Under the pieces are notes generated by a model. It had not been told where the DNA came from, did no database searches, and worked only from the letters and a program-made list of their open reading frames with translations. Source: a virus (lineage: Duplodnaviria; Heunggongvirae; Uroviricota; Caudoviricetes). From it: a stretch of DNA of 64,000 bases. Position 1 is the stretch's first letter. The number at the start of each line of letters is the position of its first letter. Of this stretch, positions 459 to 16,259 are shown one piece after another. Location of the stretch: IMG/VR virus record IMGVR_UViG_3300012983_000030, one strand, 5' to 3'. The position numbers were made by a program, and so were the translations under genes.

Positions 459-503
459 ATAGTATAGACTAGAAGAAAATAATTGTAAATAAAAAAAATG
501 CAT

Positions 504-540
504 AAAAAAGAAACCCTCAAGATTTCTCTCAAGGGTCTCT
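504..540 (-). terminator. Rho-independent terminator after major capsid gene
   Basis: Stem agaaaccct/agggtctct followed by U-run on minus strand. Confidence 0.7.
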
Positions 541-569
541 CATATTACTATCTTCTAAGTGCTTGAAAA

Positions 570-2132
570 TTAAGCATTGTTGAAGTTAGAAATAGCACCA
601 CGTACTAAGTATTCAGGTTTATTCAAGAATAAATCATAGAATGACATAGCACCTTTGTGGTTCTTCAAGTTTGGAGCTTGGAATGTTGGAGTGAAATACA
701 ACGGAATCCACTCAGCTAAAACTATTGCAGAATCACCTAATTGGAAACCTTTGAAACCAAACACAACTTGGTCAGCTGGTAATGTATTGCTATAAGGAAC
801 AGCGATAACAGCAATTGTACCTTCACGCAATGTACCTGCTAAGTAAGGACCAATTGGTTTCTTAGCTTCTGGAGCAGCTTTGAAGCCTTCGATTTGTTCA
901 ATGATTGTTAAACCTTGACGAGCTGAACAAATGATGAATTCTACAGTACCACGACCAGCTGTTTCTTGGATAATACCGCGAGCAGCAGAAATTGTAGTAG
1001 TATAAGAAGAATATCTTTGTTGTAATGTCAAGTTTGCACCGTTAGCAGCACAATCAAATGTTAAGTCAGGGTTAGCAACAGCACCTGCATATACAGCGCG
1101 TACTAATGCTAAGTCTCTTTCCCAACGAATTGTACCAGCGATTTGGTTAGCAATCAATTCATCAGTATCGATAGCCAAGTGAGCATTCATAACCAAACCA
1201 GCAGCAACAGAGTAAGAACTCATTAATGGGTGTTGCTTAGCCATAATTGGTTGGTTAGGAATATCAAATTGAATCTTACGAATCAATTCAACGTCTGTTT
1301 CAACATCAACAGCAGCTTCAAAAGACATAGTAGCTTTATTAGCAATAGCTTCAGCATACATAGTTGTGTCTAATTCTAATTCAGCTTCACCTGTTTGAGC
1401 ATCAACTGTACCAGTAACACCACGACCAATTACTTGATATTTACCTTCGTTAACACCATCAAGACCTGCAGCACCATTACCATAGTCACGTGCAATTTCT
1501 TTACCAGCTAAACGAACGATGAATGAACCAGCGCGTACTTTTACTGTAGCATCAGCAGGAAGAGCAGAAGAAGGAGCAGCAGCAACCTTATCAGCAGCTT
1601 CAGCATTAGCATAACCAATGAATTCAGATGAGTATGTACCGTCTGTAGCTTGCTCGAATACGATGTCACCAGCTTCTACACCAGCAGCGTCCTGAGAGTA
1701 ACGTGTTTTAATCACGAAAATTTGACCTGACTGACGGTCAAGTGCTTGAATATCCGCAATATAATTTGCCACCATTTGTGGATAAAACACATTTACGATG
1801 TCAACAACTTTAGGTGTTAAAGAAGCAACACCAGGAGAAAGTAAGCTAACAGCAGAAGTAGAAGCATTGCCGTAGTCAGCTTCATGAAGAATGTCACGGC
1901 CTTGTTCTTTAGCAACATATTCAGCTGTATTTTCTAAAAGTTGAACCAAAGTAGCTGCAGCATATTTAGCTTCTTTGCTGTCTGATTCAATGCCTTTAAC
2001 TAAGTTAGGGCAACGTTTACCTAAAGTAGATTCGTGTAATACTTCAGCTGCGTGTGCAATACCTTTGTTGATTTTTGCGCTACGGGCTTTAGCTACCAAC
2101 GAATTGTCTTCAATTTTTGTTAATATAGACAT
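570..2132 (-). CDS. Major capsid protein, T4 gp23-like (HK97 fold)
   Basis: 520 aa; VDIVNVFYPQMVANYIADIQALDRQSGQIFVIKTRY resembles the gp23 N-terminal motif; C-terminal WIPLYFTPTFQAPNLKNHKGAMSFY; strong high-expression codon bias. Confidence 0.85.
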   Translation of the reverse strand: MSILTKIEDNSLVAKARSAKINKGIAHAAEVLHESTLGKRCPNLVKGIESDSKEAKYAAATLVQLLENTAEYVAKEQGRDILHEADYGNASTSAVSLLSPGVASLTPKVVDIVNVFYPQMVANYIADIQALDRQSGQIFVIKTRYSQDAAGVEAGDIVFEQATDGTYSSEFIGYANAEAADKVAAAPSSALPADATVKVRAGSFIVRLAGKEIARDYGNGAAGLDGVNEGKYQVIGRGVTGTVDAQTGEAELELDTTMYAEAIANKATMSFEAAVDVETDVELIRKIQFDIPNQPIMAKQHPLMSSYSVAAGLVMNAHLAIDTDELIANQIAGTIRWERDLALVRAVYAGAVANPDLTFDCAANGANLTLQQRYSSYTTTISAARGIIQETAGRGTVEFIICSARQGLTIIEQIEGFKAAPEAKKPIGPYLAGTLREGTIAVIAVPYSNTLPADQVVFGFKGFQLGDSAIVLAEWIPLYFTPTFQAPNLKNHKGAMSFYDLFLNKPEYLVRGAISNFNNA

Positions 2133-2325
2133 AGTAGTTATATTCCTTTACTATAAGTTAAGTTTTTATTTTGTTATTGTCTTTATTGTATGTTATATAT
2201 TATGTTAGAATAAATATTTCGTATTTATATATACGTATTATTCTAAATCCAGAGTAGTTAAAGATCCCGTAGTTGTATTAAGTTTGTTTTTGGGAAACTT
2301 TTTTATTATCAGAATTTATATTACT

Positions 2326-2341
2326 GATATTTTTATAGAAC
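2326..2341 (-). promoter_or_regulatory. Motif B upstream of major capsid gene
   Basis: Minus strand GTTCTataaaaatat. Confidence 0.45.
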
Positions 2342-2458
2342 ATAATATATACGTAGAAAATTAGAAGAATTGAATTTTTATTTATTTTTTACACTGTTTA
2401 TTTCATATAGTCATTAATTAGTTGTGTATAACTATTATAAAAGTATATATTTAAATAT

Positions 2459-2489
2459 TGTTTTACTTATATGATTTTAGTGTTAGAAT
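2459..2489 (+). promoter_or_regulatory. Motif A sigma70-type early promoter
   Basis: TGTTTTACT, 16-nt spacer, TGn-TAGAAT. Confidence 0.6.
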
Positions 2490-2541
2490 AGTGGTAATAT
2501 AATAGTAATATCTGTATTATAGAAAAGGATTTAGTTTATAG

Positions 2542-3249
2542 ATGGCGTGTAGTAAAAGATATAGGTATAGATGGAATGTAAAACATGCTATATTAGAGTT
2601 GTTATATGATAGTGAGTTATATAATTTGCCTGGATATTATGGTGGAAGGTTTATTAATCATTTTATAAATAACTATTTTGGATTTGAAGGATATAATGGT
2701 ATACATCTTGATTTAGTTATGGATAATGAATCTTTTACGTATAACTTTTTTGAGCCTATGCTGTTTATTGAGAGTGAATGGGCTAAGCGTATTAGTGGAA
2801 AGAGATATTATTTACCGTTTATTGAATCTGATTGTAAGGAAATAAGCCGTAGGTTATTTGTGTGGAATATACCTTCTTGTGTATTTAAGCCAAGAATGAA
2901 GGAAGATGATGATGGATTAGAAGAAGAGACACTTGCTTTAAATACAAATTGGTTAAATAGAAAGTTAAAAATAGCTGATGATGAAATAATAAAACGTAGT
3001 TTGTTATATACTGATGTTGAGAGTGTATTTATAAACTTATATACGATGAAGTTTAGAATATTTTTATATAATGATTTTGCGTTAATACCTGTAGATACTA
3101 TAAAAGAGAAATTGAGAGTAATCAATGAGCAGTTAAAAAGTTTTGGTATAACATATGTACAGAATATCTTTAATGATATGTATCGGTTATATAAGATAGA
3201 AGATATACATACAACACATACTCTTTTACGAATGTATGGGTATGTATAG
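2542..3249 (+). CDS. Hypothetical protein
   Basis: 235 aa ORF with RBS AAGGA and upstream motif A; unusually G/T-rich coding strand. Confidence 0.6.
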   Translation: MACSKRYRYRWNVKHAILELLYDSELYNLPGYYGGRFINHFINNYFGFEGYNGIHLDLVMDNESFTYNFFEPMLFIESEWAKRISGKRYYLPFIESDCKEISRRLFVWNIPSCVFKPRMKEDDDGLEEETLALNTNWLNRKLKIADDEIIKRSLLYTDVESVFINLYTMKFRIFLYNDFALIPVDTIKEKLRVINEQLKSFGITYVQNIFNDMYRLYKIEDIHTTHTLLRMYGYV

Positions 3250-3280
3250 TAGTATATAAGAAAGAAAGAGGTATATAGAT

Positions 3281-3607
3281 ATGCCATATAAAAGTACAAA
3301 AATAAAAATTATAAATACAGCGTATGATAGAAGATGTAAACTAACTGCAATACAAAAAGATGAGATTATATCACTTAAAGATACTATATCTCAACGTAAG
3401 TGTGCTGAAATGTTTAATGTATCTAGACGTACTATACAATTTTTATGGGATCCTAAAAAATTAAAAAGAAATATACAGCGTAGACAAGAACGTGGTGGTA
3501 CTAAACAATATTACAATAAAGAAAAGCATAGAGAACAAATAAAGACACATAGAAGATATAAACAACAACTATATTTGGAAGGTAAAATAAGTAATGACAA
3601 AGACTAA
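3281..3607 (+). CDS. HTH DNA-binding protein
   Basis: LTAIQKDEIISLKDTISQRKCAEMFNVSRRTIQF helix-turn-helix pattern. Confidence 0.7.
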   Translation: MPYKSTKIKIINTAYDRRCKLTAIQKDEIISLKDTISQRKCAEMFNVSRRTIQFLWDPKKLKRNIQRRQERGGTKQYYNKEKHREQIKTHRRYKQQLYLEGKISNDKD

Positions 3608-3821
3608 TAGTAAATCATCAGTAATAAAACCTACATATATACTTACTTTATATGGACAAGAATTAGTATATAATGATTCAGGTATTAATAAAAGATTAGA
3701 ATGGAAATCATATAGATTAGCTAAAAAGTTTTTAATGACTAATGAGTTTTTAATTGATGGTAAATTACTAAATACTGATGATATTACTATTACTGATTAC
3801 AGAAAATATTTAGAAAATTAA
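3594..3821 (+). CDS. Hypothetical protein
   Basis: 75 aa, overlaps upstream gene, RBS GAAGG. Confidence 0.55.
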   Translation: MTKTNSKSSVIKPTYILTLYGQELVYNDSGINKRLEWKSYRLAKKFLMTNEFLIDGKLLNTDDITITDYRKYLEN

Positions 3822-3840
3822 TACGTATTGGATATAAGGT

Positions 3841-4665
3841 ATGAATAACTTTGAAAATTTAGAAGATTTAGAAGGTGAAGTGTGGAAAGATTTACCTGAT
3901 TTTGAAGGTATATATCAAGTTAGTACTAAAGGTAGAATTAAAAGTCTAAAGTGTACTAAACGTTGTAAACCACATATATTAAAACAAACTGTAGTTGTAG
4001 AAAAAAGTCATCAAAAGTATAAAAATAGTAATGGATATGCACAGGTAAAATTGCATGTAAATGGTAAAGGCTATACTAAAAGAGTACATAGATTAGTTGC
4101 TATAACATTTATTCCTAATCCTGAAAATAAAGATCAAGTTAATCATATAGATGGTAATACTTTAAACAATTGTGTAGAGAATTTAGAATGGTCAAATGGA
4201 AGCGAAAATACATTACATGCAAGAAGAGTTTTAAAACGCGGTATTTCTCATGTAATCGGTGAAAGACATGGTAATGCCAATTTAACTTGGAATGATGTAA
4301 ATAAAATACGTGAAGATTATCCAAAAGATATAAATTTAGATTATAGAGATTTTGCAAAGATATATAACGTAAAACCTGGTGAAATAGGTTATATTGTTAT
4401 GAATAAAACTTGGTATGATCCTAAATATACTCCACCTAAGTACTCAAATTACTATATACGTAATGGAATTACTTCTAAAAAAGATAGAGTACAAACTATA
4501 ACTTTAAGTAAATCACAAATTTTAACAAAAAGTCAAGTAGATGAAATACGATTGCTATATAAAACACAACGATATTCACAACAAAAACTGGCTACTATGT
4601 ATAACGTTAGTAAATCATTAATAAGTGATGTGTTACTATATAAAAGATGTTTTTCTAAGATTTAA
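3841..4665 (+). CDS. NUMOD4-HNH homing endonuclease with C-terminal HTH motifs
   Basis: EVWKDLPDFEGIYQVSTKGRIKS (NUMOD4); VHRLVAITFIPNPENKDQVNHIDGNTLNNCVENLEW (HNH); C-terminal SQQKLATMYNVSKSLIS. Confidence 0.9.
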   Translation: MNNFENLEDLEGEVWKDLPDFEGIYQVSTKGRIKSLKCTKRCKPHILKQTVVVEKSHQKYKNSNGYAQVKLHVNGKGYTKRVHRLVAITFIPNPENKDQVNHIDGNTLNNCVENLEWSNGSENTLHARRVLKRGISHVIGERHGNANLTWNDVNKIREDYPKDINLDYRDFAKIYNVKPGEIGYIVMNKTWYDPKYTPPKYSNYYIRNGITSKKDRVQTITLSKSQILTKSQVDEIRLLYKTQRYSQQKLATMYNVSKSLISDVLLYKRCFSKI

Positions 4666-4702
4666 TTTATTATTTAATTAAAAATAAATTTTTACAAATA
4701 TC

Positions 4703-4734
4703 TGTTTTACGTTATTTTTTTTGTTTGCTATAGT
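4703..4734 (+). promoter_or_regulatory. Motif A early promoter
   Basis: TGTTTTACG-N17-TATAGT with TGn. Confidence 0.65.
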
Positions 4735-4764
4735 AAATGCATAGTAAATAATAGGAGAACTTAA

Positions 4765-5469
4765 ATGAAATTAGATAACAAAGAATTGTTTATACAAAGG
4801 ACTAAACTTTTAAATGACATTGCTGAATTACTTGGTCATGTAGAAACGTTAAAAGAATATGTTGATGAATATGTACAATCTTTAAAAAATATGCCTGGGA
4901 TATTCTTTAGAGTTAAAGATATCGTATATGTATTGACAAACAAAAGTATTGAGATAAATGATACAGCCGGTATTATGTCGATTGTAGATGATTTACCTAG
5001 CGTTTTATTTAAAGCATTAGATAATAAATCAATTGCTTATTATAAGACAGCAGAAGGTAAAGTCGCTGCTTTGGATATGTTTAGCGATTATATCATCAAT
5101 AATATGCACGTAATTTTACACGAATTAGTACACATTGATGATGAACGAAACGGTACAATCAAAAAGGGTGATAAAAGTGTAAGTACTAATCCCTATGCTT
5201 ATTATAATCATCCTTCTGAAATTAGAGCATATACACAAGACTGTTTATATTTGGCCATCACTGAAATATTCGAAGCAATAAATAAAAATGAAATTAAAAA
5301 TAAAACAGATTTAAAAAAGTTTTGTAAAATATATAAAGAATATAAAGATATTTTTACTAAAGCTAAGAAAAAGAATAACTTTGTTTATTGGACACCTGCT
5401 ACATTTAATGATTATCTTAGTAATTTAGATTATGTAGTGAATTTAATTGGTTTAAGTTTGCCAGACTAA
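4765..5469 (+). CDS. Zincin-like metallopeptidase-domain protein
   Basis: ILHELVHID (HExxH) plus downstream YYNHPSEIRAY (third-ligand Glu). Confidence 0.6.
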   Translation: MKLDNKELFIQRTKLLNDIAELLGHVETLKEYVDEYVQSLKNMPGIFFRVKDIVYVLTNKSIEINDTAGIMSIVDDLPSVLFKALDNKSIAYYKTAEGKVAALDMFSDYIINNMHVILHELVHIDDERNGTIKKGDKSVSTNPYAYYNHPSEIRAYTQDCLYLAITEIFEAINKNEIKNKTDLKKFCKIYKEYKDIFTKAKKKNNFVYWTPATFNDYLSNLDYVVNLIGLSLPD

Positions 5470-5508
5470 AGAAATTACTATAGTAATATTTAGTTAGGAA
5501 TAAATGAA

Positions 5509-6168
5509 ATGACATCAGTGTTTAGAAATAGGGTATTAGGTTACGATGTAGATGATAATAATTTAATTGAAGTGAGTTATCCTAATAGATGGTTAGACTT
5601 TGAAAAGTCTTCAATTAGACTTATAAAAAAGAATGAAATATGTATTTTTGAATATATAGCTTCAGTTATTGCTCTTTTGTGGAAAGAAGCCTCATGGCAT
5701 TCAGAATATTCTGTATTTCAGAGTACGAGTTTCGGTGTAAGTATATCTCCTATAGTAATAATTTATGATAAAAGACGTAATTTATTAATATGTGAAGCAA
5801 CCTATTTTCCAGATCAAGCTGCTGATACTCATTTGGTTTCAGATGAAGTCAAATGTGCTCGTATAGCTTTAAAAGATTTTCAAGAAACCATAAATAAGTA
5901 TAGCTTTAATTCAATTATTAATTTATCTCCGATATGTATTTATTCAGATTATTCACATACTCCAAAAGTAAATGATCAATATGATGAAGAGGAATGTCCT
6001 TATAAGTACTATTCACAACGAGACATTAGATTAAAAATCGTATTAGATTTAAATAAATTTAATGCATTGCATGAAGGATACTTACGTATGTTAGTAAATA
6101 AAAACACTTTGTATGATGAAGTTAATGAAAATCTTAGTGATTTAGCTAGTCTTTTGATATATGAATAA
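5509..6168 (+). CDS. Hypothetical protein
   Basis: 219 aa, RBS AGGA. Confidence 0.6.
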   Translation: MTSVFRNRVLGYDVDDNNLIEVSYPNRWLDFEKSSIRLIKKNEICIFEYIASVIALLWKEASWHSEYSVFQSTSFGVSISPIVIIYDKRRNLLICEATYFPDQAADTHLVSDEVKCARIALKDFQETINKYSFNSIINLSPICIYSDYSHTPKVNDQYDEEECPYKYYSQRDIRLKIVLDLNKFNALHEGYLRMLVNKNTLYDEVNENLSDLASLLIYE

Positions 6169-6197
6169 TCTCAGTAATTAATTTTTAATGCAAATTC

Positions 6198-6229
6198 TGT
6201 TTTACTATATGTATAATATAGTTTATAAT
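6198..6229 (+). promoter_or_regulatory. Motif A early promoter
   Basis: TGTTTTACT-N17-TATAAT. Confidence 0.7.
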
Positions 6230-6260
6230 AATATTATATTATAGATAAAATGGAGTTTCA

Positions 6261-7274
6261 GTGATGTTAGAATTTGATAAAGAATATAGAGTAGAGCTAA
6301 GAGTAAAAAACAATTTACTCTATAAAAAGATTTATGATAATTATGGAACAATAAAGAATTTTTCTGATACAGTTGGTATAAGTATTCAAGTAATCAGGGA
6401 CTTTCTTAATTTTAAGTGTGATTTATATAATAGAAGAGGTGGGGAATTAAAAAACAGTGTTAAAAAGTTAATGGATATATTTAAATGCCCATTAAATGAA
6501 TTATTTCCAGAAAATTATAAAGTCATAGAAACTAATAAATATATTAAAGAAGTTAGCCAGCAAGAAATAGAATTAATTTCTATGCAAAGTTCTGAGATGA
6601 ATTTGTTAACATACTCATTTGATTCTGAAATAGAACAAATTGACTTAAGAAACAAAATTGAGAAACTTATCAATACTCTTTCTCCAAGAGAAGCTGAAAT
6701 AATAAGACTTAAGCATTTTAATAATTATACAACAACAGAAATAGCTGAAGAATTAGGTATATCTAAACAAAGAGTAGGTCAAATAATTGAAGCTGCAATT
6801 GGAAAAATGTCACATCCTGGTAGAATCAAATCATTAAAAGAATATGCGGAAGGTAGAGATATTTTAACTAGCTTAAATGCTTATAATCCTAATCGTCTAG
6901 CAAAAATTAAAGATAAAGATGAAACAACTTTATTTATTTTAACTAATACTATTTGGAAGGATATATTAGGTGTTCGTCGTAGACTTTATACTAGGTATTG
7001 CCCTATTCAAATAGATCAAGAAACAATTAGTCGCGGATTTATTAAAAAATATAAAGGTAAGTATATAAAATTTATATACGATGAAGACAAAGCTGATAGT
7101 TTAGAAGATCTTAAGTTATTTAGAAAATTAATTAATATATTTATAGATTTATGTAAATCAGTTAGTGATGTTAAAATTACTGATAAATATATCATCATGC
7201 CTAGAAGTGAATTTGAAAAACTCAACAGTAAAGTGCTTGAAGTTAAAAATATAATAAGTATAAACATTGATTAG
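6261..7274 (+). CDS. XRE-like HTH + sigma70 region-4 domain protein
   Basis: LINTLSPREAEIIRLKHFNNYTTTEIAEELGISKQRVGQIIEAAIGKMSHPGRIKSLKEY matches RpoD region 4; no region 2 recognisable. Confidence 0.75.
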   Translation: MMLEFDKEYRVELRVKNNLLYKKIYDNYGTIKNFSDTVGISIQVIRDFLNFKCDLYNRRGGELKNSVKKLMDIFKCPLNELFPENYKVIETNKYIKEVSQQEIELISMQSSEMNLLTYSFDSEIEQIDLRNKIEKLINTLSPREAEIIRLKHFNNYTTTEIAEELGISKQRVGQIIEAAIGKMSHPGRIKSLKEYAEGRDILTSLNAYNPNRLAKIKDKDETTLFILTNTIWKDILGVRRRLYTRYCPIQIDQETISRGFIKKYKGKYIKFIYDEDKADSLEDLKLFRKLINIFIDLCKSVSDVKITDKYIIMPRSEFEKLNSKVLEVKNIISINID

Positions 7275-7311
7275 ACATTTAGCACCATAAGTAAAAATAA
7301 GCCATTTTTTT

Positions 7312-7327
7312 GTTCTTATAACATATA
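7312..7327 (+). promoter_or_regulatory. Motif B
   Basis: GTTCTtataacatata upstream of the 7356-9822 operon. Confidence 0.45.
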
Positions 7328-7355
7328 GTTAATTTAATATATTATAAGGTGAAAA

Positions 7356-8021
7356 ATGATAGTAGCGTATTCTGGAAAAAATGCAACTTTAGAGATGGTT
7401 AGCGGTAATAAAAATATAGGTTTAATTACTGCAAAAAACGATGGAGTTGAATATAAATTAGAAAGTAAACTTGAAGTATCTAATGATCAAAGAACTTTAA
7501 GCAAAAGGTTTTTATTTACTCTATTTAAAAATACAAAAAGATTATTTAAAGATCCTATTTCTCAACAAGTGGATTTAAAATTTTACGAAACATTTAGTAG
7601 TGGTAGAATTAATAGTGTTGCTAGTATTAGATGTGATACTGCTAAACATTTTCCTGCAGAATTAACAGTTAGAGATGAACCAGATAAAAATTACATTTCT
7701 AATAATTGGACATGTACTACTCATACTAGAGTATGGACACTTACTACAAAATATGATATGGGTAATGATGTTGCATTGCCTTTAGTAAGTAATGTATATA
7801 TGAGAACAAGTGATGTAAAATATAAAACAAAAGAAGTAGAAGTAGAAGAATTAGCAAAAGAAGCTACTATAAAAATGACAAGAGATGAAATAATACAAGA
7901 TGAAGCAGACGCTGCTGAATATGAGTCATATTTAGGTACTCATGTAATTGGAATAGAATATTACCATGATAATGAATTAGTAGCATCTGATATTCATAAA
8001 ATTATACTCATGCAAGACTAA
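7356..8021 (+). CDS. Hypothetical protein, possibly virion-associated
   Basis: 221 aa, beta-rich, first gene of a motif-B operon. Confidence 0.55.
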   Translation: MIVAYSGKNATLEMVSGNKNIGLITAKNDGVEYKLESKLEVSNDQRTLSKRFLFTLFKNTKRLFKDPISQQVDLKFYETFSSGRINSVASIRCDTAKHFPAELTVRDEPDKNYISNNWTCTTHTRVWTLTTKYDMGNDVALPLVSNVYMRTSDVKYKTKEVEVEELAKEATIKMTRDEIIQDEADAAEYESYLGTHVIGIEYYHDNELVASDIHKIILMQD

Positions 8022-8057
8022 TATAATATTTAATTCTTTTTAAGAAAGTTTATTAAA

Positions 8058-9215
8058 ATGATATTTTATGGTAGAAGTCAAATCGATGTGTTTCATCCGG
8101 CTAAATCAACTGGAACACAAATTGCAGCTATTAACAAAACAGGCGCTGTAATTAATGAAGGTGATAAAGTTTGGTTAAATAAAAATATAAAAATTCAAGG
8201 TAGTAATTATAAAGTTACTAATTCTTCTAATGCATATTATAACGATGGTGTATTAAACCGTGCTGGTACATTCGGTTGTAATGCTAATGCTTTGTATAGT
8301 TTTGGAGAAAGTTCTGCAAAGTGGATAAGTAATCCTTTTTCAATAAGTCCGACTAGTGTTAGATATTGTGCTGATAATAGTACTTTTGTTTTTAATTCTT
8401 CTGGTAATATGTCTGTTAGAATAGACGAACAGAATATTTTTCAATTAACAAGTATGACTCCAATTGCAGAAGATTGGTTTTACGAATCTAATACTAACTC
8501 TATACATAAATTAAACATGAAAACTGGAGAAATCATTGAAACATTAGGTACTGTGCCATATTTTGATGATGCTGCTATGACACGTATAAACAATACTATT
8601 CATAGTTTTACAGGATATGCTTATAGTTATGCATATGAAAATGGAGCTTTTGTACAAAAAAACAGAACTATAGAAAATTCATCTGTTTTTTATCCTGTTG
8701 CCGTAACGCTAGATAATAAATATATTGTAGCATCAGATCAAGAATATTATTCAAATCGTCAATATTATGCTGGTGGATTACGTTTAGTAAAAGTAATAGA
8801 TGAATTTACATTTAAAGTATTGTCTCAAAGTGAAATGCCAGCTGAATTACAAGAATGGTATAATAAAGATGCTTGTGTAGTATTTAATCAATATACTGGT
8901 GTATTGACATTATCTAGCTACACGGCTAATACATATGCAATGTTTAAATATGAAAATGATATATGGGTAAAATTAAATTTAGATTTAGGCAATATTATAC
9001 CAAGAAGCTCTTTGACAGTATCAGATGATTTAACAAGAGCTTTTTGTAGAGATAGCTCTACCGGTTATACTACTATAATTGATTTAGTAGATCTTTCTGG
9101 ATATATGACTGTTCCTTATAGAGCTTATAATATGAGTGAAAATACAATTACTGGTTATGCAGCAAATACAGCAGGACCAGATGAACAAGTTAAAGTAAGA
9201 ACAGTAATGGAGTAA
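8058..9215 (+). CDS. Putative virion/tail-associated protein with central beta-rich domain
   Basis: N-terminal AINKTGAVINEGDKVWL and C-terminal TGYAANTAGPDEQVKVRTV bracket an N/S/T/Y-rich beta region. Confidence 0.55.
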   Translation: MIFYGRSQIDVFHPAKSTGTQIAAINKTGAVINEGDKVWLNKNIKIQGSNYKVTNSSNAYYNDGVLNRAGTFGCNANALYSFGESSAKWISNPFSISPTSVRYCADNSTFVFNSSGNMSVRIDEQNIFQLTSMTPIAEDWFYESNTNSIHKLNMKTGEIIETLGTVPYFDDAAMTRINNTIHSFTGYAYSYAYENGAFVQKNRTIENSSVFYPVAVTLDNKYIVASDQEYYSNRQYYAGGLRLVKVIDEFTFKVLSQSEMPAELQEWYNKDACVVFNQYTGVLTLSSYTANTYAMFKYENDIWVKLNLDLGNIIPRSSLTVSDDLTRAFCRDSSTGYTTIIDLVDLSGYMTVPYRAYNMSENTITGYAANTAGPDEQVKVRTVME

Positions 9216-9219
9216 AAAG

Positions 9220-9822
9220 ATGCCGGTTTACTTTGGAAATAAAAGTCATGATATTATGATTGGAAAAGACCCTATTGAAAAGATGGGTGGAAATAAGCTA
9301 ACTTATAGTATGTATGGTGATAATATACCGATTATCGATAAAAAATGGTCACAAACCTATGATTGGCAAGCTGACGGGGTAACTTGGTCATTTAATAGTG
9401 TTATTCACGCAAAATGTTCAAATGATATGTTCACAAATATGTGGAAAAACGGCTGTGATGGTGTTAGGACTCTAAGTTCGTATCCGTCATTACTTGAATA
9501 TTTATACCCTTGTTGGAATACATTATCCAAGTATGATTTCTCCAATAAAATATCGTTAACAGTAGAACTACCTGTGGAAATAGATGTTTCTAGCGTTGAA
9601 GTAGGATTTTGGAGAAAAAGTTATGAAGATTATGTTAATGTCAATATGATATTATATGATGTGAATGGAAATGTTACAGGTTATACAACGTTAGCGAATG
9701 GTATAAACTCCATAACAGATAATGTAAAAGTAAAAAGCATTGAGTTTTGTGCATCTTCGATTAGTATAAAATCTTCACTCTCTGCTTATGTGTATTCGTT
9801 GATAATAAACGCAGCATATTAA
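9220..9822 (+). CDS. Shared-N-terminal-module family protein 1 (putative virion adhesin, beta-sandwich-like C-terminus)
   Basis: Begins MPVYFGNKSHDIMIGKDPIEKMGGNKLTYSMYGDNIP, shared with 10462, 11754 and 13967. Confidence 0.65.
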   Translation: MPVYFGNKSHDIMIGKDPIEKMGGNKLTYSMYGDNIPIIDKKWSQTYDWQADGVTWSFNSVIHAKCSNDMFTNMWKNGCDGVRTLSSYPSLLEYLYPCWNTLSKYDFSNKISLTVELPVEIDVSSVEVGFWRKSYEDYVNVNMILYDVNGNVTGYTTLANGINSITDNVKVKSIEFCASSISIKSSLSAYVYSLIINAAY

Positions 9823-9861
9823 AAAATTCATCAAAAGAACCGAGAATGTTAAAGTAAAATG

Positions 9862-9898
9862 AAAGACTCCAATCTAATTAAAGAAAGGAGTCTTTTTT
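9862..9898. terminator. Bidirectional terminator between convergent genes
   Basis: aaagactcc...ggagtcttt followed by T-run. Confidence 0.75.
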
Positions 9899-9912
9899 AT
9901 TATAAGCCATTA

Positions 9913-10446
9913 TTAATCTAATACTTGTATCGTTTCTTTAGGATGAAATACACATATGCTAGGTATGTCCCAAGAGTTAAGAGCCATTAATAGAGTATAT
10001 TTATATTTAGGATCTTGTAATTCTGGATCTTTTGTTGCAAGACTATAATGTAATGCTCTATTTCCTTTATCTGTTAATTCTACTGCGTCATATTCTTTAG
10101 ATAATTTTACAAAATCAATATAATATGATTCAGGTGTATAATAATTTTTTACCAAATATATAAAATCATCTACATTATCTATAGTATATACTTTTACATT
10201 AGGTTTTAGCGTCCATTCAAAATAATTATCGGTACAAGCAAAATCTTCATCTGTACACCAATTTTTCCAACTATCATCTCTACAACCCCATAATCCACCT
10301 GCTGGTTTATTAATATGATTACCAGTTATATCATTTAAGTATGGTTCATTAGCATATGTACGATAAACAACAGATTCAGCTTCGACTAAACGTTTTTGCT
10401 CATAGTCTGTTAAAATACTTTCTACTATTTTTTTCCATTTAGACAC
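9913..10446 (-). CDS. Conserved phage protein (KPxGGLW family), possible ADP-ribosyltransferase-like fold
   Basis: VYRTY...NKPAGGLWGC...W.NWC...IDFVKLSKEYDAVELT...SWDIPS; N-terminal IVE/LVE propeptide-like motifs. Confidence 0.5.
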   Translation of the reverse strand: MSKWKKIVESILTDYEQKRLVEAESVVYRTYANEPYLNDITGNHINKPAGGLWGCRDDSWKNWCTDEDFACTDNYFEWTLKPNVKVYTIDNVDDFIYLVKNYYTPESYYIDFVKLSKEYDAVELTDKGNRALHYSLATKDPELQDPKYKYTLLMALNSWDIPSICVFHPKETIQVLD

Positions 10447-10461
10447 TATATAATTTCCTTC

Positions 10462-11739
10462 TTATTTTGGAAGTTCAATTTTTGTAAATGTCAATGCATT
10501 ATCTGTAGTTCCAATTCCTAATTGTCCATTACCATTATAACCGCATCCATACAATTCGTTATTATAATTTACATATAAAGAAGCAGTGTTGTCAAAACTA
10601 AATGATTTAACATTTTCTGCTTTTTTAGTAAATGATTTTACATTATTTGTATCCCCAGATCCTTGTTGCCCGTAGTCATTTCTACCACAGCCATAAAGAT
10701 CATTGTTATTATTAATATACCATGTAGCATAACCAAAACAATATACTTTTTGTACATTTTCTGCGCGTTTTACATATGTATTTACTGTAGTTGTAGTTCC
10801 GTCGCCTTGCTGACCGTAATCATTTATACCATGACCATATAGATTATCATCTTGATCTATATACCAAGCACTGGTTACTCCACAATCGAAATCTTTTACA
10901 TTAGTAGCTATATTAACAAAGCGATATTGAGAAGGCCAACCAGGTCTTACATAATAGCCACATCCATATAATTCATTGTTATAATTTATATAAAGAGTTT
11001 GATTACGATTACATTTTATTTCTTTAACATTTTCAGCTCTTTTGGTAAATACCAATACAGTTGCAGCAGAACCATTCCCTTGAGGACCTTTATCTCCATC
11101 TCCGCAGCCATATAATTCATTATTGTTATCAATATACCAAGTTGTATGGCTCGAGCATGTAAAATCTCGAATATTTTCAGCTTTTTTGGTAAATTGGGTT
11201 ACATCAGTTATATTACCTGTTCCTTGTTGTCCGACACCATTGAATCCACAACCATACAAATTGTTATCATTTGTTAAATACCATGACGTAGAGCTATTGC
11301 AACAAAACTTTTTAATATTATCTGCTCTTTTAGTGAAAGCTAAAATATCATCTGTAGTTCCATCGCCTTGATTTCCATAACCATTATATCCACAACCATA
11401 CAATTCATTATTTTTTGTTAAATACCAGGTTATCGTTCTGTCGCAATCAAAATCTTTAATGTTTGAAGCTCTTTTGGTAAAAATAAATGAATCTTGTTTT
11501 GTACCATCTCCTAATTGTCCGTGGTCATTATTTCCACATCCATACAAATTACCTTTATCGGTTAAATACCAAGCAGTATATTCTGTTACTTTGATTTTAA
11601 TAATCTGTTCCTCGTCTTCTAATACAACAGGAATATTATCACCGTACATACTGTAAGTTAATTTATTGCCACCCATTTTTTCAATTGGAATATTTCCAAA
11701 TATAATGTTATGACTTTTATTTCCGAAATAGATTGCCAT
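10462..11739 (-). CDS. RCC1/BLIP-II repeat beta-propeller protein (shared-module family 2)
   Basis: About 7-8 repeats of WYxxxxNxLYGCGxNxxGQxGxGTT; shared N-terminal module. Confidence 0.85.
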   Translation of the reverse strand: MAIYFGNKSHNIIFGNIPIEKMGGNKLTYSMYGDNIPVVLEDEEQIIKIKVTEYTAWYLTDKGNLYGCGNNDHGQLGDGTKQDSFIFTKRASNIKDFDCDRTITWYLTKNNELYGCGYNGYGNQGDGTTDDILAFTKRADNIKKFCCNSSTSWYLTNDNNLYGCGFNGVGQQGTGNITDVTQFTKKAENIRDFTCSSHTTWYIDNNNELYGCGDGDKGPQGNGSAATVLVFTKRAENVKEIKCNRNQTLYINYNNELYGCGYYVRPGWPSQYRFVNIATNVKDFDCGVTSAWYIDQDDNLYGHGINDYGQQGDGTTTTVNTYVKRAENVQKVYCFGYATWYINNNNDLYGCGRNDYGQQGSGDTNNVKSFTKKAENVKSFSFDNTASLYVNYNNELYGCGYNGNGQLGIGTTDNALTFTKIELPK

Positions 11740-11753
11740 TTTATTTTTCCTTC

Positions 11754-13223
11754 TTATTCTTTTGGAAGTTTGATTTTTGTAAATGTTAATATTTTATTAT
11801 CACTTCCAACTAGTTTATACTGATTACTTCCACAAGCATATAATCTATTTTCATTATCTATATACCAGGTCATACCATGCATAGTATATACTTCTCTAAC
11901 ATTTTCAGCTCTTTTACTAAATCTAGTTACGTTGGTTGTAGTTCCATCACTTTGATTTCCATAACCATTATATCCACATCCATAAAGCTTACCATCTTTT
12001 ATATACCAAGTAGCTAAAGAATCATATGTAAAATAGTCGACACCAGAAGCCAATATCTCCCAGTAACCATCTTTTATATCAGATGTATCACCAGTTCCTA
12101 ATTGTCCATAATTATTTCTACCAACTGCATATACCTGCCCAGATGATGGTATAAAGCGATAAGTTGTAGTGTTAGTCGAATTGGTAAATAACTGATACCC
12201 TTCATTCCAAGAAGTAGATATGGCAAAAGGAGTTACGATAGTTGTATTGGTTTTATTTTTAATTCCTAATTGTCCATAGTTGTTATATCCACATGCATAT
12301 AATGAGAGTGAAGAGTATACATAAAATGTAGACGTATCTGTTACAAATACATCTGTTGCATTAGAAGCTCTTAGAGTGAATTTATCTACTGTTTTACCAG
12401 GTCCCCAACCATTACAGCTCTGTTGACCGTATCTATTATCACCACAACCATATAAATTTCCATTACTAGCTATATACCAGGATGCATTATACGAACAAGC
12501 AAATTTTTTAATTTTTGAGGATACTCTGGTAAATGTTGTCGACGAAATAGTACCACTACAACTACCCATACCACATACCCATAATTCATCATTATTTGTT
12601 ATATAGAAAGTAGTATATTTGTTAAGATAAACATCTTTAACGTTTTCAGCTCTCTTAGTGAATGTTAGAACATCACCGCTTGAATTACCTGAACCTTGTT
12701 GCTGTTGCAATCCACATCCATATAATTCATCATTATTTGTTATATAGAAGGTTGCATAATCACTACTTTGAACTTTTCTAACATTCTCAGCTCTCTTAGT
12801 AAATGTTAAAACATTTGTTTTATCACCACTTCCTTGTTGGCCATAATAATTATAACCACAACCATATAAGTCATCGTTGTTATCGATATACCAGGTTGAA
12901 TATACTGTAGTACCAACAGTTGCTATATAAAAATCTTTAACATTCTCAGCTCTTTTAGTGAATTTAGTTACCCTGGTTGTATCACCGCTTCCTTGCTGTC
13001 CATACTGATTACTACCACAACCATATAAATTACCTTTACTAGTTAAATACCAAATAGTATTTATTTCAATGTTTTTTATCTTAACGATATATTCATCATC
13101 TTCTAAAACAACGGGAATATTCTCACCATACATTGAATAAGTAAGTTTGTCTCCACCCATTTTCTCAATGGGATCTTTTCCAATCATAATGTCATGAGAA
13201 GTATTTCTAAAATATACAGGCAT
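11754..13223 (-). CDS. RCC1/BLIP-II repeat beta-propeller protein (shared-module family 3)
   Basis: Repeated LYGCGxNxYGQQGSGDTT; shared N-terminal module; ends FTKIKLPKE like its paralogue (FTKIELPK). Confidence 0.85.
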   Translation of the reverse strand: MPVYFRNTSHDIMIGKDPIEKMGGDKLTYSMYGENIPVVLEDDEYIVKIKNIEINTIWYLTSKGNLYGCGSNQYGQQGSGDTTRVTKFTKRAENVKDFYIATVGTTVYSTWYIDNNDDLYGCGYNYYGQQGSGDKTNVLTFTKRAENVRKVQSSDYATFYITNNDELYGCGLQQQQGSGNSSGDVLTFTKRAENVKDVYLNKYTTFYITNNDELWVCGMGSCSGTISSTTFTRVSSKIKKFACSYNASWYIASNGNLYGCGDNRYGQQSCNGWGPGKTVDKFTLRASNATDVFVTDTSTFYVYSSLSLYACGYNNYGQLGIKNKTNTTIVTPFAISTSWNEGYQLFTNSTNTTTYRFIPSSGQVYAVGRNNYGQLGTGDTSDIKDGYWEILASGVDYFTYDSLATWYIKDGKLYGCGYNGYGNQSDGTTTNVTRFSKRAENVREVYTMHGMTWYIDNENRLYACGSNQYKLVGSDNKILTFTKIKLPKE

Positions 13224-13303
13224 TGAATTTATTCCTTTATTACAGACAATTAATTAAATATCAATTCATAGTATTTGGAACTTGTTTATTATTAGACGAA
13301 TAT

Positions 13304-13335
13304 TGTTTTACAAAATAAATCAATTAGCATATAAT
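13304..13335 (+). promoter_or_regulatory. Motif A early promoter
   Basis: TGTTTTACA-N17-TATAAT. Confidence 0.7.
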
Positions 13336-13354
13336 TATAATATATGTTTTAGTA

Positions 13355-13537
13355 TTGGAGAGATATATTATGACTGAAATGGAATTATATAGAATAATAA
13401 ATGAAACACATGAAAAATTAGATAAGCTAATCAAACAACAATTTGAGTTAATTAAGCAACAAAAAGCACTTGCTGAAAAAGTTGAAAAATTAAATGAAAT
13501 TTTAGATGAAAATACCAAAAATAAAGCCCCTAATTAA
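13355..13537 (+). CDS. Small coiled-coil protein (likely start ATG 13370)
   Basis: Heptad pattern HEKLDKLIKQQFELIKQQKALAEKVEKLNE; own promoter and terminator. Confidence 0.55.
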   Translation: MERYIMTEMELYRIINETHEKLDKLIKQQFELIKQQKALAEKVEKLNEILDENTKNKAPN

Positions 13538-13549
13538 AGGGGCCTTTTT
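13523..13549. terminator. Bidirectional terminator
   Basis: aaagcccc...ggggcctttt between convergent ORFs. Confidence 0.7.
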
Positions 13550-13550
13550 A

Positions 13551-13868
13551 TTACCATTTCTTAATCCAAGCTATTATTTTTTCATATATAAATGATAAAG
13601 TACTTTTAATAGCATTTACTAAAAGATTATAAATAGTCTTAACAAACATAATTAATAGATTTGAAATACCTTTTAAGAGTTCCCATATCCATTTGAAGAT
13701 AGTCTGTACAAATACTATACAACCATTTTTTAATATTTCAAATGTTTCTTTAGCGAATTCTTTTATATTTTTAACAAAAGCTTTTCTAGTCTGTTTACAA
13801 TAATCTACGAACTGTTTCCATATGTTTTTCATTTTTATTTTATTCCTTATATTAAAATACTTGGTCAA
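13551..13868 (-). CDS. Amphipathic helical protein
   Basis: Regularly spaced F/W/I/L with Lys: FVQTIFKWIWELLKGISNLLIMFVKTIYNLL...IIAWIKKW. Confidence 0.5.
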   Translation of the reverse strand: MTKYFNIRNKIKMKNIWKQFVDYCKQTRKAFVKNIKEFAKETFEILKNGCIVFVQTIFKWIWELLKGISNLLIMFVKTIYNLLVNAIKSTLSFIYEKIIAWIKKW

Positions 13869-13966
13869 TTTTTATATATATTTGAACCATCAAAATATAA
13901 ATAGAATTACAAAGTTCATATTTATATCTAAATTTTAATCAGATACTATAACAAAGGAATAAATTA

Positions 13967-15001
13967 ATGCCAGTTTTAATAGGTAATAAATCTTATGATT
14001 TAATGATAGGTAATCATCATATTGAATATTTAAATAATAATGGAACTATCGCTTATTCAATGTATGGAAATAATATACCAATCAATGATGCCCCAGATTG
14101 GATTCCGACAGGTAAATTTGATGAAGATGGAATTATATTTAGCTTTAATAAACAACCTTACTATGGATCTGAAAAAGCTTACAAAGAAGTATATGAAAAT
14201 GGATTTAATTATTTTCATGGAAGAGACATAGATAGATATTACCAAAGTGAATTACCACAAACTGAATATATTACATCAGAAAGATATTCTGGATGGTGGC
14301 AATATAAATTACCAGAAGAACATTACGTATATAGTATTAAATGTGCATATGTACAAGATCATGATGAAACATGTAATATGAGTTATGTTACAATTTATGC
14401 TTATAATGGAGATCAAATTGTTGCACAAAAAAATGTAAACTTTTCTTTTAATGGTTTTGGTACTTTTGAATTAGTAGTAGATAAAAAAATTACACATTTT
14501 AAAATAAATGACCCTTGTCAAAAATATAGTGGAACTTTTTCATCCTTCAAATTATCAGGTGTATACTTTAATGTATTCAAACCTAAAAAACAATTCGTAC
14601 CTTTTGTTCAAACTGGTGATCAAGTAATAGATAATGTCAAATTTATATGTAACAGTACTTATGACGTACCAAATATTATTACACTTTGGAATAATACACC
14701 GGATAAGTATACAGCTGTTGGATTTTCTAGTACGGTTGATATTATGTTCAATCGTCCAATATTTGTAGAATCAATAACTTGGAATAATGGAAAAAGTAAA
14801 AATAAAAACTATCCATATTTTTATGTATATTATGATCCAGATAATTATACAACAAAAATAGCTGCTCGTAAGTACGAGGGCTCAGTAAATTCTGGCAGTA
14901 TTACTACAAATAATATAGGATTAATAATGTATGGTTTACATATGAGTCAGACTATTAGTAATGTAATGTGTTATTTACGTATTAATGGATATGAAATTTA
15001 A
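13967..15001 (+). CDS. Shared-N-terminal-module family protein 4 (beta-sandwich-like domains)
   Basis: MPVLIGNKSYDLMIGNHHIEYLNNNGTIAYSMYGNNIP; Y/N-rich C-terminus. Confidence 0.65.
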   Translation: MPVLIGNKSYDLMIGNHHIEYLNNNGTIAYSMYGNNIPINDAPDWIPTGKFDEDGIIFSFNKQPYYGSEKAYKEVYENGFNYFHGRDIDRYYQSELPQTEYITSERYSGWWQYKLPEEHYVYSIKCAYVQDHDETCNMSYVTIYAYNGDQIVAQKNVNFSFNGFGTFELVVDKKITHFKINDPCQKYSGTFSSFKLSGVYFNVFKPKKQFVPFVQTGDQVIDNVKFICNSTYDVPNIITLWNNTPDKYTAVGFSSTVDIMFNRPIFVESITWNNGKSKNKNYPYFYVYYDPDNYTTKIAARKYEGSVNSGSITTNNIGLIMYGLHMSQTISNVMCYLRINGYEI

Positions 15002-15049
15002 AGAAATCGAATTAACTAAATAATATACTTAAAAATCATTTATTTTAAT

Positions 15050-15085
15050 AAAGTCCTCTTGTTTTTAGGAGGGCTTTATTTTTTT
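15050..15085 (+). terminator. Rho-independent terminator
   Basis: aaagtcctc...gagggcttt + T-run. Confidence 0.65.
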
Positions 15086-15116
15086 GTTTTACAATAACAG
15101 ATTTAAGATATATAAT
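15085..15116 (+). promoter_or_regulatory. Motif A early promoter driving the small-gene array
   Basis: TGTTTTACA-N17-TATAAT. Confidence 0.7.
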
Positions 15117-15151
15117 TAATATTATTTTAGTAATATATAAGGATATATAAC

Positions 15152-15370
15152 ATGAAAATCTTTAATCTAATAAAAAATAAATTCAAAAAATCAAAACAAA
15201 TATCAATAACACAAAGTAGACCAACAGATACGTTATTAATAACATTAAATAAATGTGAAGAATTAAAATCTCAACGTAATAAAATAATTGAAATACTTCT
15301 TCGTGAATCTCCAAAATATCAAAGATTTATTGAATCAAATTATCCTGATTATTTTAATAATAAGAAATAA
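15152..15370 (+). CDS. Hypothetical protein
   Basis: 72 aa, RBS AAGGA. Confidence 0.55.
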   Translation: MKIFNLIKNKFKKSKQISITQSRPTDTLLITLNKCEELKSQRNKIIEILLRESPKYQRFIESNYPDYFNNKK

Positions 15371-15381
15371 GGAAAACCACA

Positions 15382-15603
15382 ATGAATAATCATGAACCAA
15401 AAGCAGGAGATATATATGTTAGTAGATTTGCTACTTATAGAATAATTAATAATGACGGATATCGTTGTTATTGTATTATTTTAGAAAATGATACTATCTC
15501 AATGAGAAGTGTGTATAATGATTATTTCAAAAAAAGTTGTATTTATTTGGGAGAAAGTGAATATAATATTAAAGATTTATTTAAAAGAAAAGGAGTAAAT
15601 TAA
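15382..15603 (+). CDS. Hypothetical protein
   Basis: 73 aa, RBS AAGGA. Confidence 0.6.
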   Translation: MNNHEPKAGDIYVSRFATYRIINNDGYRCYCIILENDTISMRSVYNDYFKKSCIYLGESEYNIKDLFKRKGVN

Positions 15604-16259
15604 TGGGGTATAGAAATTACTTATATATTGCAGATAAAAAGAAAATCAACAAAGTACGTAAAATGTCAGCAAACGAACTATGGGAATTAGTTGGTGGAAA
15701 AACAGAATTGGATGAAGATATCGATACGCCTTGGATAGGTGATGTATTAGATAAATTAAAGGCTGAAGAATTTATTGAATTAGGAAAATACTTAGATTAT
15801 ACAAATGAAATACAACCTTTTCTAAAACCATTATTTCGTGATAAATTAGTACATGATGATTATAATTGTGAAACGGAATGTATGTTAGTTAAACCAGAAA
15901 TATTACAAAAAATAGCAACAATATTTAAGGAAAAAGCTAAAAATTATTATAAGTCATTGTTAGAAGAAAAATCTTCAAATATATTAGACACACGTCCTCA
16001 ATTAGAAAGATGTACAGAAGACATTAGAACAAAACTAACTTGGCTTGAAAGTTTAGATACATTACCAAATAATAAATGGACTATAAGTGATACATGGCTT
16101 TATGAGTATGAAATGTTTAATATTCTTCACTTAATGAGAATATTTAATCCTAAAAAAACAAGCTTTAGTATGGATAGGACACTAAAAACGATTTGTACAT
16201 TGCAGATGAATAGGAGTTTGAAAAATGGTCAAATTAAAGAAAGAATATATAAAAGATAA
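15603..16259 (+). CDS. Hypothetical protein (C-terminus possibly frameshifted at A7 tract 16152-16158)
   Basis: TAATG coupling; alternative frame ends KKQALVWIGH* at 16185. Confidence 0.6.
   Translation: MGYRNYLYIADKKKINKVRKMSANELWELVGGKTELDEDIDTPWIGDVLDKLKAEEFIELGKYLDYTNEIQPFLKPLFRDKLVHDDYNCETECMLVKPEILQKIATIFKEKAKNYYKSLLEEKSSNILDTRPQLERCTEDIRTKLTWLESLDTLPNNKWTISDTWLYEYEMFNILHLMRIFNPKKTSFSMDRTLKTICTLQMNRSLKNGQIKERIYKR

Follow-up and report, generated by a model that had tools for sequence, protein, structure and literature searches.

The stretch of DNA analysed here, 64,000 nucleotides of the Caudoviricetes virus record IMGVR_UViG_3300012983_000030 from IMG/VR (hereafter the window), encodes a cluster of four proteins that have their first ~38 residues in common and then continue into different C-terminal domains (Table 1). 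We call the shared segment the module and the part that follows it the payload, and we name open reading frames (ORFs) by their lower coordinate; the module genes 1 to 4 are thus 9220, 10462, 11754, and 13967. In an alignment of the four copies, M1, N7, S9, G15, I19, E20, Y29-S30-M31-Y32-G33, and N35-I36-P37 are invariant. We built a hidden Markov model (HMM) from the module and ran it against the ORFs in all six frames of the window; it matched exactly these four proteins with E-values of 1e-25 to 1e-30 (the next best match had an E-value of 0.56), and the four-gene family described in an initial annotation of this DNA therefore stands, with no fifth copy in the window.

Two of the four proteins, 10462 and 11754, carry RCC1 propellers, as the initial annotation had it. 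Both match the Pfam models PF25390, PF13540, and PF00415 above the gathering cut-off; for PF25390, where the cut-off is 150 bits, 10462 scores 171.5 bits (E 4e-50) and 11754 scores 163.5 bits (E 1e-47). An AlphaFold2 model of 10462 has a predicted local distance difference test score (pLDDT) of ~97 over residues 44-425, and a Foldseek search with this model returned UVR8 at an E-value of 1e-29 as well as RCC1 and HERC2, in accord with a closed propeller fold. Residues 1-41 of the same model have a pLDDT below 40 and do not pack on the propeller, a prediction that fits a segment folding only upon contact with a partner. We also considered that the module might be the “velcro strand” of the propeller, and rejected this since the module precedes non-propeller domains as well and does not pack on the propeller model. 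Classical RCC1 has seven blades of 51-68 residues. The LYGCG repeats of 10462 number eight and recur with a 48-residue period, and its TM-scores to seven-bladed structures are only 0.65; judging from these repeats and scores, the 10462 propeller may be eight-bladed.

The remaining two payloads had been described as unrelated beta domains. Neither has a family match in the Pfam and PHROG scans, but the BLASTP similarity between 9220 and 13967 extends past the module to about residue 80, and the two are thus not fully unrelated. For the 9220 payload the ESM Atlas gave a weak lead to the F5/8-type-C fold, and an ortholog of the whole protein (P0005) is 78% identical. AlphaFold2 produced no usable fold for 13967 from an eight-sequence input (pLDDT 42). 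All three homologs found for the 13967 payload (P0009, P0013, and P0108) start with the module, and both of its subtypes (MP... and MTG...) are represented among them.

How is the module constrained? Its copies are only 58-79% identical at the nucleotide level, and among the three close copies 10-14 of the 38 codons differ synonymously only, versus 5-11 that differ non-synonymously. Between paralogs in the window and in a sister phage, L001 (described below), the ratio of non-synonymous to synonymous substitution rates (dN/dS, by the Nei-Gojobori method NG86) is 0.04-0.21, with dS ranging from 0.75 to saturated. Low dN/dS with dS near saturation indicates that the module is old and under strong purifying selection, without recent homogenisation by gene conversion; the earlier reading that the copies differ mostly at synonymous sites and that the peptide is under selection is thereby confirmed. 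An alignment of 42 N-termini gives the consensus M-P-h-h-h-x-N-x-S-[HY]-x-h-x-h-G-x-x-x-I-E-K-M-G-G-x-x-h-T-[YF]-S-M-Y-G-[DE]-[NE]-[IP]-P, with h denoting any hydrophobic residue. The opening residues are conserved as M-P, or as M and a small residue. Variable sequence begins directly after the module, and the payload starts after a linker of 5-10 residues that follows its 38 residues.

We searched 1.84 billion representative proteins exhaustively with the module profile (HMMER) and obtained only 39 clusters; a word-indexed search agrees. About 35 of the clusters are real members, and in them the module is N-terminal or nearly so, in most cases starting at residue 1; it is not a generic low-complexity leader. 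Four of the other matches (P0029, P0038, P0039, and P0044) are internal repeat matches with no informative Pfam family and were taken as chance, and P0042 is an N-terminally cut fragment. The range of partner domains is far wider than the initial annotation, which had suggested such a search, described. In many members the module is followed by an RCC1 propeller; in P0008 and P0018 it is followed by an F5/8-type-C or NedA-like galactose-binding domain, and in P0012 and P0014 by Gly_rich_2, to which P0015, P0031, and P0043 are similar by eye. Likewise, in three relatives (P0012, P0028, and L001 15606-17063) one to three immunoglobulin (Ig)-like domains follow the module. These are of the HFD type (PF25641) found in the head-fibre protein gp29 of phage crAss001: the P0012 domain matches gp29 with a phmmer E-value of 5e-11, and three domains of the L001 protein match PF25641 at 3e-36. 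Several unnamed beta domains complete the range. By their family matches (RCC1, F5/8-type-C, NedA-like galactose-binding, and Gly_rich_2), the payloads are domains of the binding type. As far as Pfam and PHROG models go, none of which it matches, the module family is new and unannotated. Searches of IMG/VR for relatives of the module, 8058, and 13967 found none, and GenBank phages gave no match to the DNA from 7000 to 16000 or to the 9220 protein.

The sister phage L001, which comes from a 241-kb metagenome record and whose major capsid protein is 99.6% identical to that of the window, shows how the locus changes. We compared L001 8373-20117, a locus that ends inside the island of L001 itself. 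The left flank of the island (window 480-5492) is 90-94% identical to L001 in nucleotides, and beyond it the two phages part almost entirely. L001 has seven module genes at the same locus versus four in the window: four with RCC1 payloads, one with a double discoidin domain, one with a Gly-rich-like domain, and one with three HFD-like Ig domains. Genes 5509, 7356, 8058, and 9913 have no counterpart in L001. The island DNA matches L001 over the module of 9220 (9215-9329, 90%), the intergenic stretch downstream of gene 1 (9850-9917, 91%), an RCC1 gene that has its ortholog in L001 (82%), a segment comprising the 5′ part of 11754 and the small 13551 gene (80%), and the divergent promoter region that precedes 13967 (84%); at the protein level, 10462 is 77% identical to its ortholog at L001 12674-13960. 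Gene 1 provides the clearest case. A payload of ~520 nucleotides in the window is replaced by an RCC1 payload of ~1180 nucleotides in L001, with the breakpoint at the end of the module. Conserved sequence flanks the differing payloads on both sides, the module upstream and intergenic DNA downstream, which makes this a clean cassette replacement. The comparison of related phages that had been suggested for this cassette thus reveals real turnover between close relatives, and, since adhesin repertoires would turn over here while the capsid protein stays nearly constant, the module locus is probably a hotspot of adaptation between phage and host or phage and mucus.

Two small proteins of the wider family are deletion hybrids. 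In P0003 (112 residues) the start of a module-RCC1 protein is joined to the C-terminus of a 9913 homolog, with a junction (LTDKGN) common to both parents, and in P0041 (38 residues) the first 24 residues of the module are joined to the C-terminal end of an RCC1 protein (FTKIELPK). Judged by their sequences, both look like scars of recombination between neighbouring cassettes.

Table 1. The module cluster and its surroundings (window positions unless L001 is named).
Feature	Position	Strand	Remarks
Module gene 1, 200 residues	9220..9822	+	Module codons 1-38 (9220-9333), then ~160-residue beta-rich payload
Module gene 2, 425 residues	10462..11739	-	Module 11626-11739, then RCC1-like propeller with eight LYGCG repeats
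Module gene 3, 489 residues	11754..13223	-	Module 13110-13223, then RCC1-like propeller; 14 nucleotides upstream of gene 2
Module gene 4, 344 residues	13967..15001	+	Divergent module with one-residue insertion (13967-14083), then two beta-rich domains
Hypervariable island	5493..15001		Window and L001 diverge almost completely; right edge provisional, L001 ending inside its own island
Intergenic stretch 3′ of gene 1	9850..9917		91% identical to L001 11300-11368; with the module, brackets the replaced payload
Interposed 177-residue gene without module	9913..10446	-	phrog_8582, a function-unknown family
Small helical, hydrophobic 105-residue protein	13551..13868	-	Within the cluster in both phages; 90% identical in amino acids to L001 14286-14567
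Terminator-like hairpin, both strands	13523..13546		Between 13551(-) and the start of 11754(-)
Terminator-like hairpin closing gene 4	15047..15080	+	Followed by sigma-70-like promoter 15088-15116
Genes 7356 and 8058	7356..9215	+	Upstream of gene 1 and probably co-transcribed with it; no known family
Sigma-region-4 (sigma-like) protein	6261-7274		37% identical to L001 counterpart
234-residue protein at left edge of island	4765-5469; L001 7646-8350		HELVH (HExxH-like) motif; conserved in both phages; no family match
gp23-like major capsid protein	570..2132	-	PF07068 1e-24, phrog_138; 7 kb from the module cluster

What could be the function of a short peptide that is conserved at the N-terminus of such different proteins? 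We propose, with slightly better than even confidence, that the module is a virion-docking peptide that displays lectin-like heads. The ~38 residues would probably be unfolded alone and would fold on contact with a virion protein, and the docked module would anchor small globular lectin-like heads, namely RCC1 propellers, discoidin or jelly-roll-like domains, and, in relatives, glycine-rich domains, on the exterior of the particle. Each phage carries two to seven module genes in a hypervariable island, and its repertoire changes by the swap or deletion of payloads between the conserved module and conserved intergenic DNA, rather than by a diversity-generating retroelement or an invertase. Because one near-identical peptide is found on all paralogs and no shaft or trimerisation domain accompanies it, the paralogs would share many equivalent sites, either the hexon centres of the capsid, as with the crAss001 head fibres, or, as in “hairy” jumbo phages, rings on the neck or sheath, rather than the six defined sockets of a baseplate. 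We lean towards such decoration of the capsid, neck, or sheath also because Ig spacers of the head-fibre type occur in the family. The initial annotation had proposed a docking peptide that plugs interchangeable domains into one virion site. The discrete, selected unit and its exchangeable binding-type C-terminal domains are what we find; that the proteins belong to the virion, that the module docks them there, and at which site, we infer from analogy with the systems discussed below. The partners that had been put forward, 7356 and 8058, fared less well. Homologs of the two genes are absent from the syntenic 20-kb stretch of L001 and from three other module loci (L002-L004), and 7356 and 8058 are therefore not a conserved partner of the module.

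A close architectural parallel is provided by the head fibres of crAss001, like the phages here a gut phage. Residues 1-38 of gp21 and residues 1-58 of gp29 sit in a pocket of the capsid hexon and carry small C-terminal domains (PMC10172136). The likeness between these fibres (PDB 7QOF and 8CKB) and the module proteins, a short N-terminal segment and then a small C-terminal domain, is one of architecture only. crAss001 differs in having one gene of each kind instead of an array and another type of capsid, and a Pfam scan found the gp29 Ig-like domain in none of the four genes of the window. Homology between the module and the N-terminus of gp29 was considered, as a BLASTP alignment ran through the module, and was rejected when profile-profile tests proved negative. 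Similarly, T4 Hoc and T5 pb10 are dispensable proteins that display binding domains on the surface and are anchored at the centres of capsid hexamers. Both are encoded by single genes and neither matches the module proteins in sequence; Hoc differs further in that its C-terminal domain is the anchor and its displayed domains are Ig-like.

Alternatively, the module genes may encode classical tail fibres or receptor-binding proteins, with the module fitting an adaptor or a baseplate socket and the paralogs widening the host range. In branched systems, otherwise unrelated receptor-binding proteins are documented to attach by way of a conserved N-terminal peptide: in the K1-5/K1E/SP6 group and in the Klebsiella phage groups of KP32, KP34, Menlow, and PhiK64-1, group-specific peptides dock the secondary receptor-binding proteins (PMC6872550). 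As in the island described here, divergent cassettes lie within conserved synteny and are exchanged horizontally. The payloads of these systems, however, are trimeric depolymerase tailspikes on a T4gp10-like branching domain, whereas here they are small lectin-like domains; Pfam and PHROG scans of the neighbouring ORFs found neither a T4gp10-like branching domain nor another adaptor, and no shaft, coiled coil, or beta-helix lies between module and head. Furthermore, each docking site has a peptide of its own in known branched systems, whereas up to seven paralogs here share nearly one peptide. With regard to the docking principle, the modular-adhesin reading is a plausible one that accords with these known systems; the principle is known and the family is new.

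The domains and neighbours of the module genes also bear on the choice between capsid and tail. RCC1 propellers are present on annotated T7-type tail fibres of the phages Littlefix and PollyC. In addition, the Clostridioides phage LIBA2945 (L006 8494-15707) encodes a 1627-residue RCC1-domain protein and a Gly-rich protein between its tail-fibre genes and endolysin, and thus both payload types sit in the tail module of a cultured Firmicutes phage. Module genes stand beside structural genes in three phage backgrounds: the capsid gene in the window and in L001, tail-tube and baseplate-hub genes in L002, and the gene of a tail-tip-domain protein in L003. In L002, two module-RCC1 genes lie between a thymidine kinase and a homing endonuclease and are followed by the tail genes, and L003, an 8.9-kb contig, carries seven module genes in tandem. 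Because RCC1 and Gly-rich proteins occur in tail modules and on fibres, and because the L002 and L003 genes stand beside tail genes, a tail or baseplate site stays a serious rival; the nearby capsid gene in the window and the single shared peptide speak against it, and we regard this possibility as clearly the less likely one, though not one to be dismissed.

Beyond the array in L003 lie the gene of a membrane protein and, at 7981-8976, those of a 105-residue protein and a Gly-rich protein. The 105-residue protein ends in the phage tail-tip domain PF24243 (E 7e-10), and the Gly-rich protein has a different N-terminus, MPIFNDLSN...IKDIYVGGD.

The same neighbourhoods are relevant to an explanation in which the proteins are not associated with the virion at all. 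The module might be a common handle for some factor of the phage or host inside the cell, or an element of self-association or folding, and the proteins might act in the infected cell; the module genes of the window do have a sigma-like regulator and numerous small genes of early type as neighbours. Against this stand the carbohydrate-binding type of the payloads and the head-fibre-like Ig spacers, the rapid turnover that is typical of host-contact proteins, and the structural-gene neighbours in all three backgrounds, as well as the precedent of phage phAPEC6, in which proteins of an RCC1 array are virion proteins (PMC7247149). We consider an intracellular role improbable. Finally, a hypervariable locus in which widely differing proteins of a T4-like phage with a gp23 capsid bear one N-terminal tag brings to mind a capsid-targeting or packaging signal, by which proteins would be loaded inside the head for injection. 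The internal-protein locus of T4 is hypervariable, and its capsid-targeting sequence (CTS) consists of ~10 residues that end in an L/I-x-E site for the prohead protease. The module has 38 residues, not ~10, and no L/I-x-E motif in register, P-I preceding E20 in the conserved run P-I-E-K; moreover, payloads of the lectin or adhesin type have no obvious role inside a host cell. Of the explanations weighed here, a signal of the CTS kind appears the least credible, and we think it very unlikely.

A number of observations weigh against docking on the virion as we propose it. In an hhalign comparison of the 42-sequence module alignment with the N-terminal part of a 51-sequence gp29 alignment, the probability was below 1%, and the module profile found no similarity to a solved anchor in the PDB (best E-value 0.07). 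No conserved candidate partner was found among the module loci compared. A candidate late-promoter motif (TATAGTAA-like), considered as one common to the cluster and the capsid gene, is not enriched, with 13 matches in the window versus 10.3 expected, and was dropped. There is no cultured relative, the best GenBank phage match of the capsid protein being 34%. The preference for capsid over tail is itself indirect, since the fold of the Ig-like domain is that of a generic spacer and the gene neighbourhoods point both ways.

The RCC1 arrays of the Asteriusvirus/Rak2-like jumbo phages offer a further comparison. phAPEC6 encodes eleven RCC1-like proteins, which were read as DNA-condensation proteins and several of which are in its virion proteome; its particle bears unassigned fibres both at the centres of the hexons and, on the tail, in rings (PMC7247149). 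We find that phAPEC6 gp001-010, gp004 and gp008 apart, carry a common tag, MLPF[AG]RM[VIL]KYGN[IV], which begins at residue 1 except in gp002, whose annotated start lies upstream of the tag. Thus, as in the module cluster, tandem RCC1 propeller genes of a jumbo phage have an N-terminal tag in common. The Asteriusvirus tag is shorter, 12-15 versus 38 residues, the module HMM gave E-values above 0.2 against gp001-010, and these phages belong to another host group and capsid lineage. The Asteriusvirus tag ends in KYGNIAP and the module in (S)MYG(D/E)NIP, in each case directly ahead of the payload. This likeness of YGNIAP to YG(D/E)NIP is the only one between the two tags and is too short for statistics; it could be a matter of chance or of convergence on a similar way of docking. 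A bolder extension, which we put forward tentatively and think rather doubtful, is that unrelated lineages of giant phages (the T4-like jumbo phages of gut and rumen and the Rak2-like coliphages) independently evolved a “universal plug” peptide for exchangeable lectin-like heads on hundreds of equivalent capsid or sheath sites. The result would be a combinatorial sticky coat for host or mucus glycans, distinct from the tail-fibre determinants of host range. On this view, the YG(D)NI(A)P core of both tags may reflect one shared docking solution.

If the module is indeed a virion plug, the family would mark surface-display proteins in uncultured jumbo phages of gut and rumen, and it would account for the “chromosome condensation” RCC1 genes that pile up in phage genomes. 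Furthermore, the module would constitute a natural 38-residue tag for displaying foreign binding domains on such particles.

As for the wider context, the window is AT-rich (25-30% GC) and also encodes NrdD, an NAD-dependent DNA ligase, an RNA ligase, a Dda-like helicase, homing endonucleases, and a family-B DNA polymerase. Contigs that encode proteins of the module family reach 238,861 bp. In sequence searches of the PDB, the Gly-rich and discoidin relatives had no match. Within the cluster, the very hydrophobic 13551 protein has only weak PHROG matches, to helical segments of tape-measure proteins; a role as assembly factor or membrane protein is conceivable.

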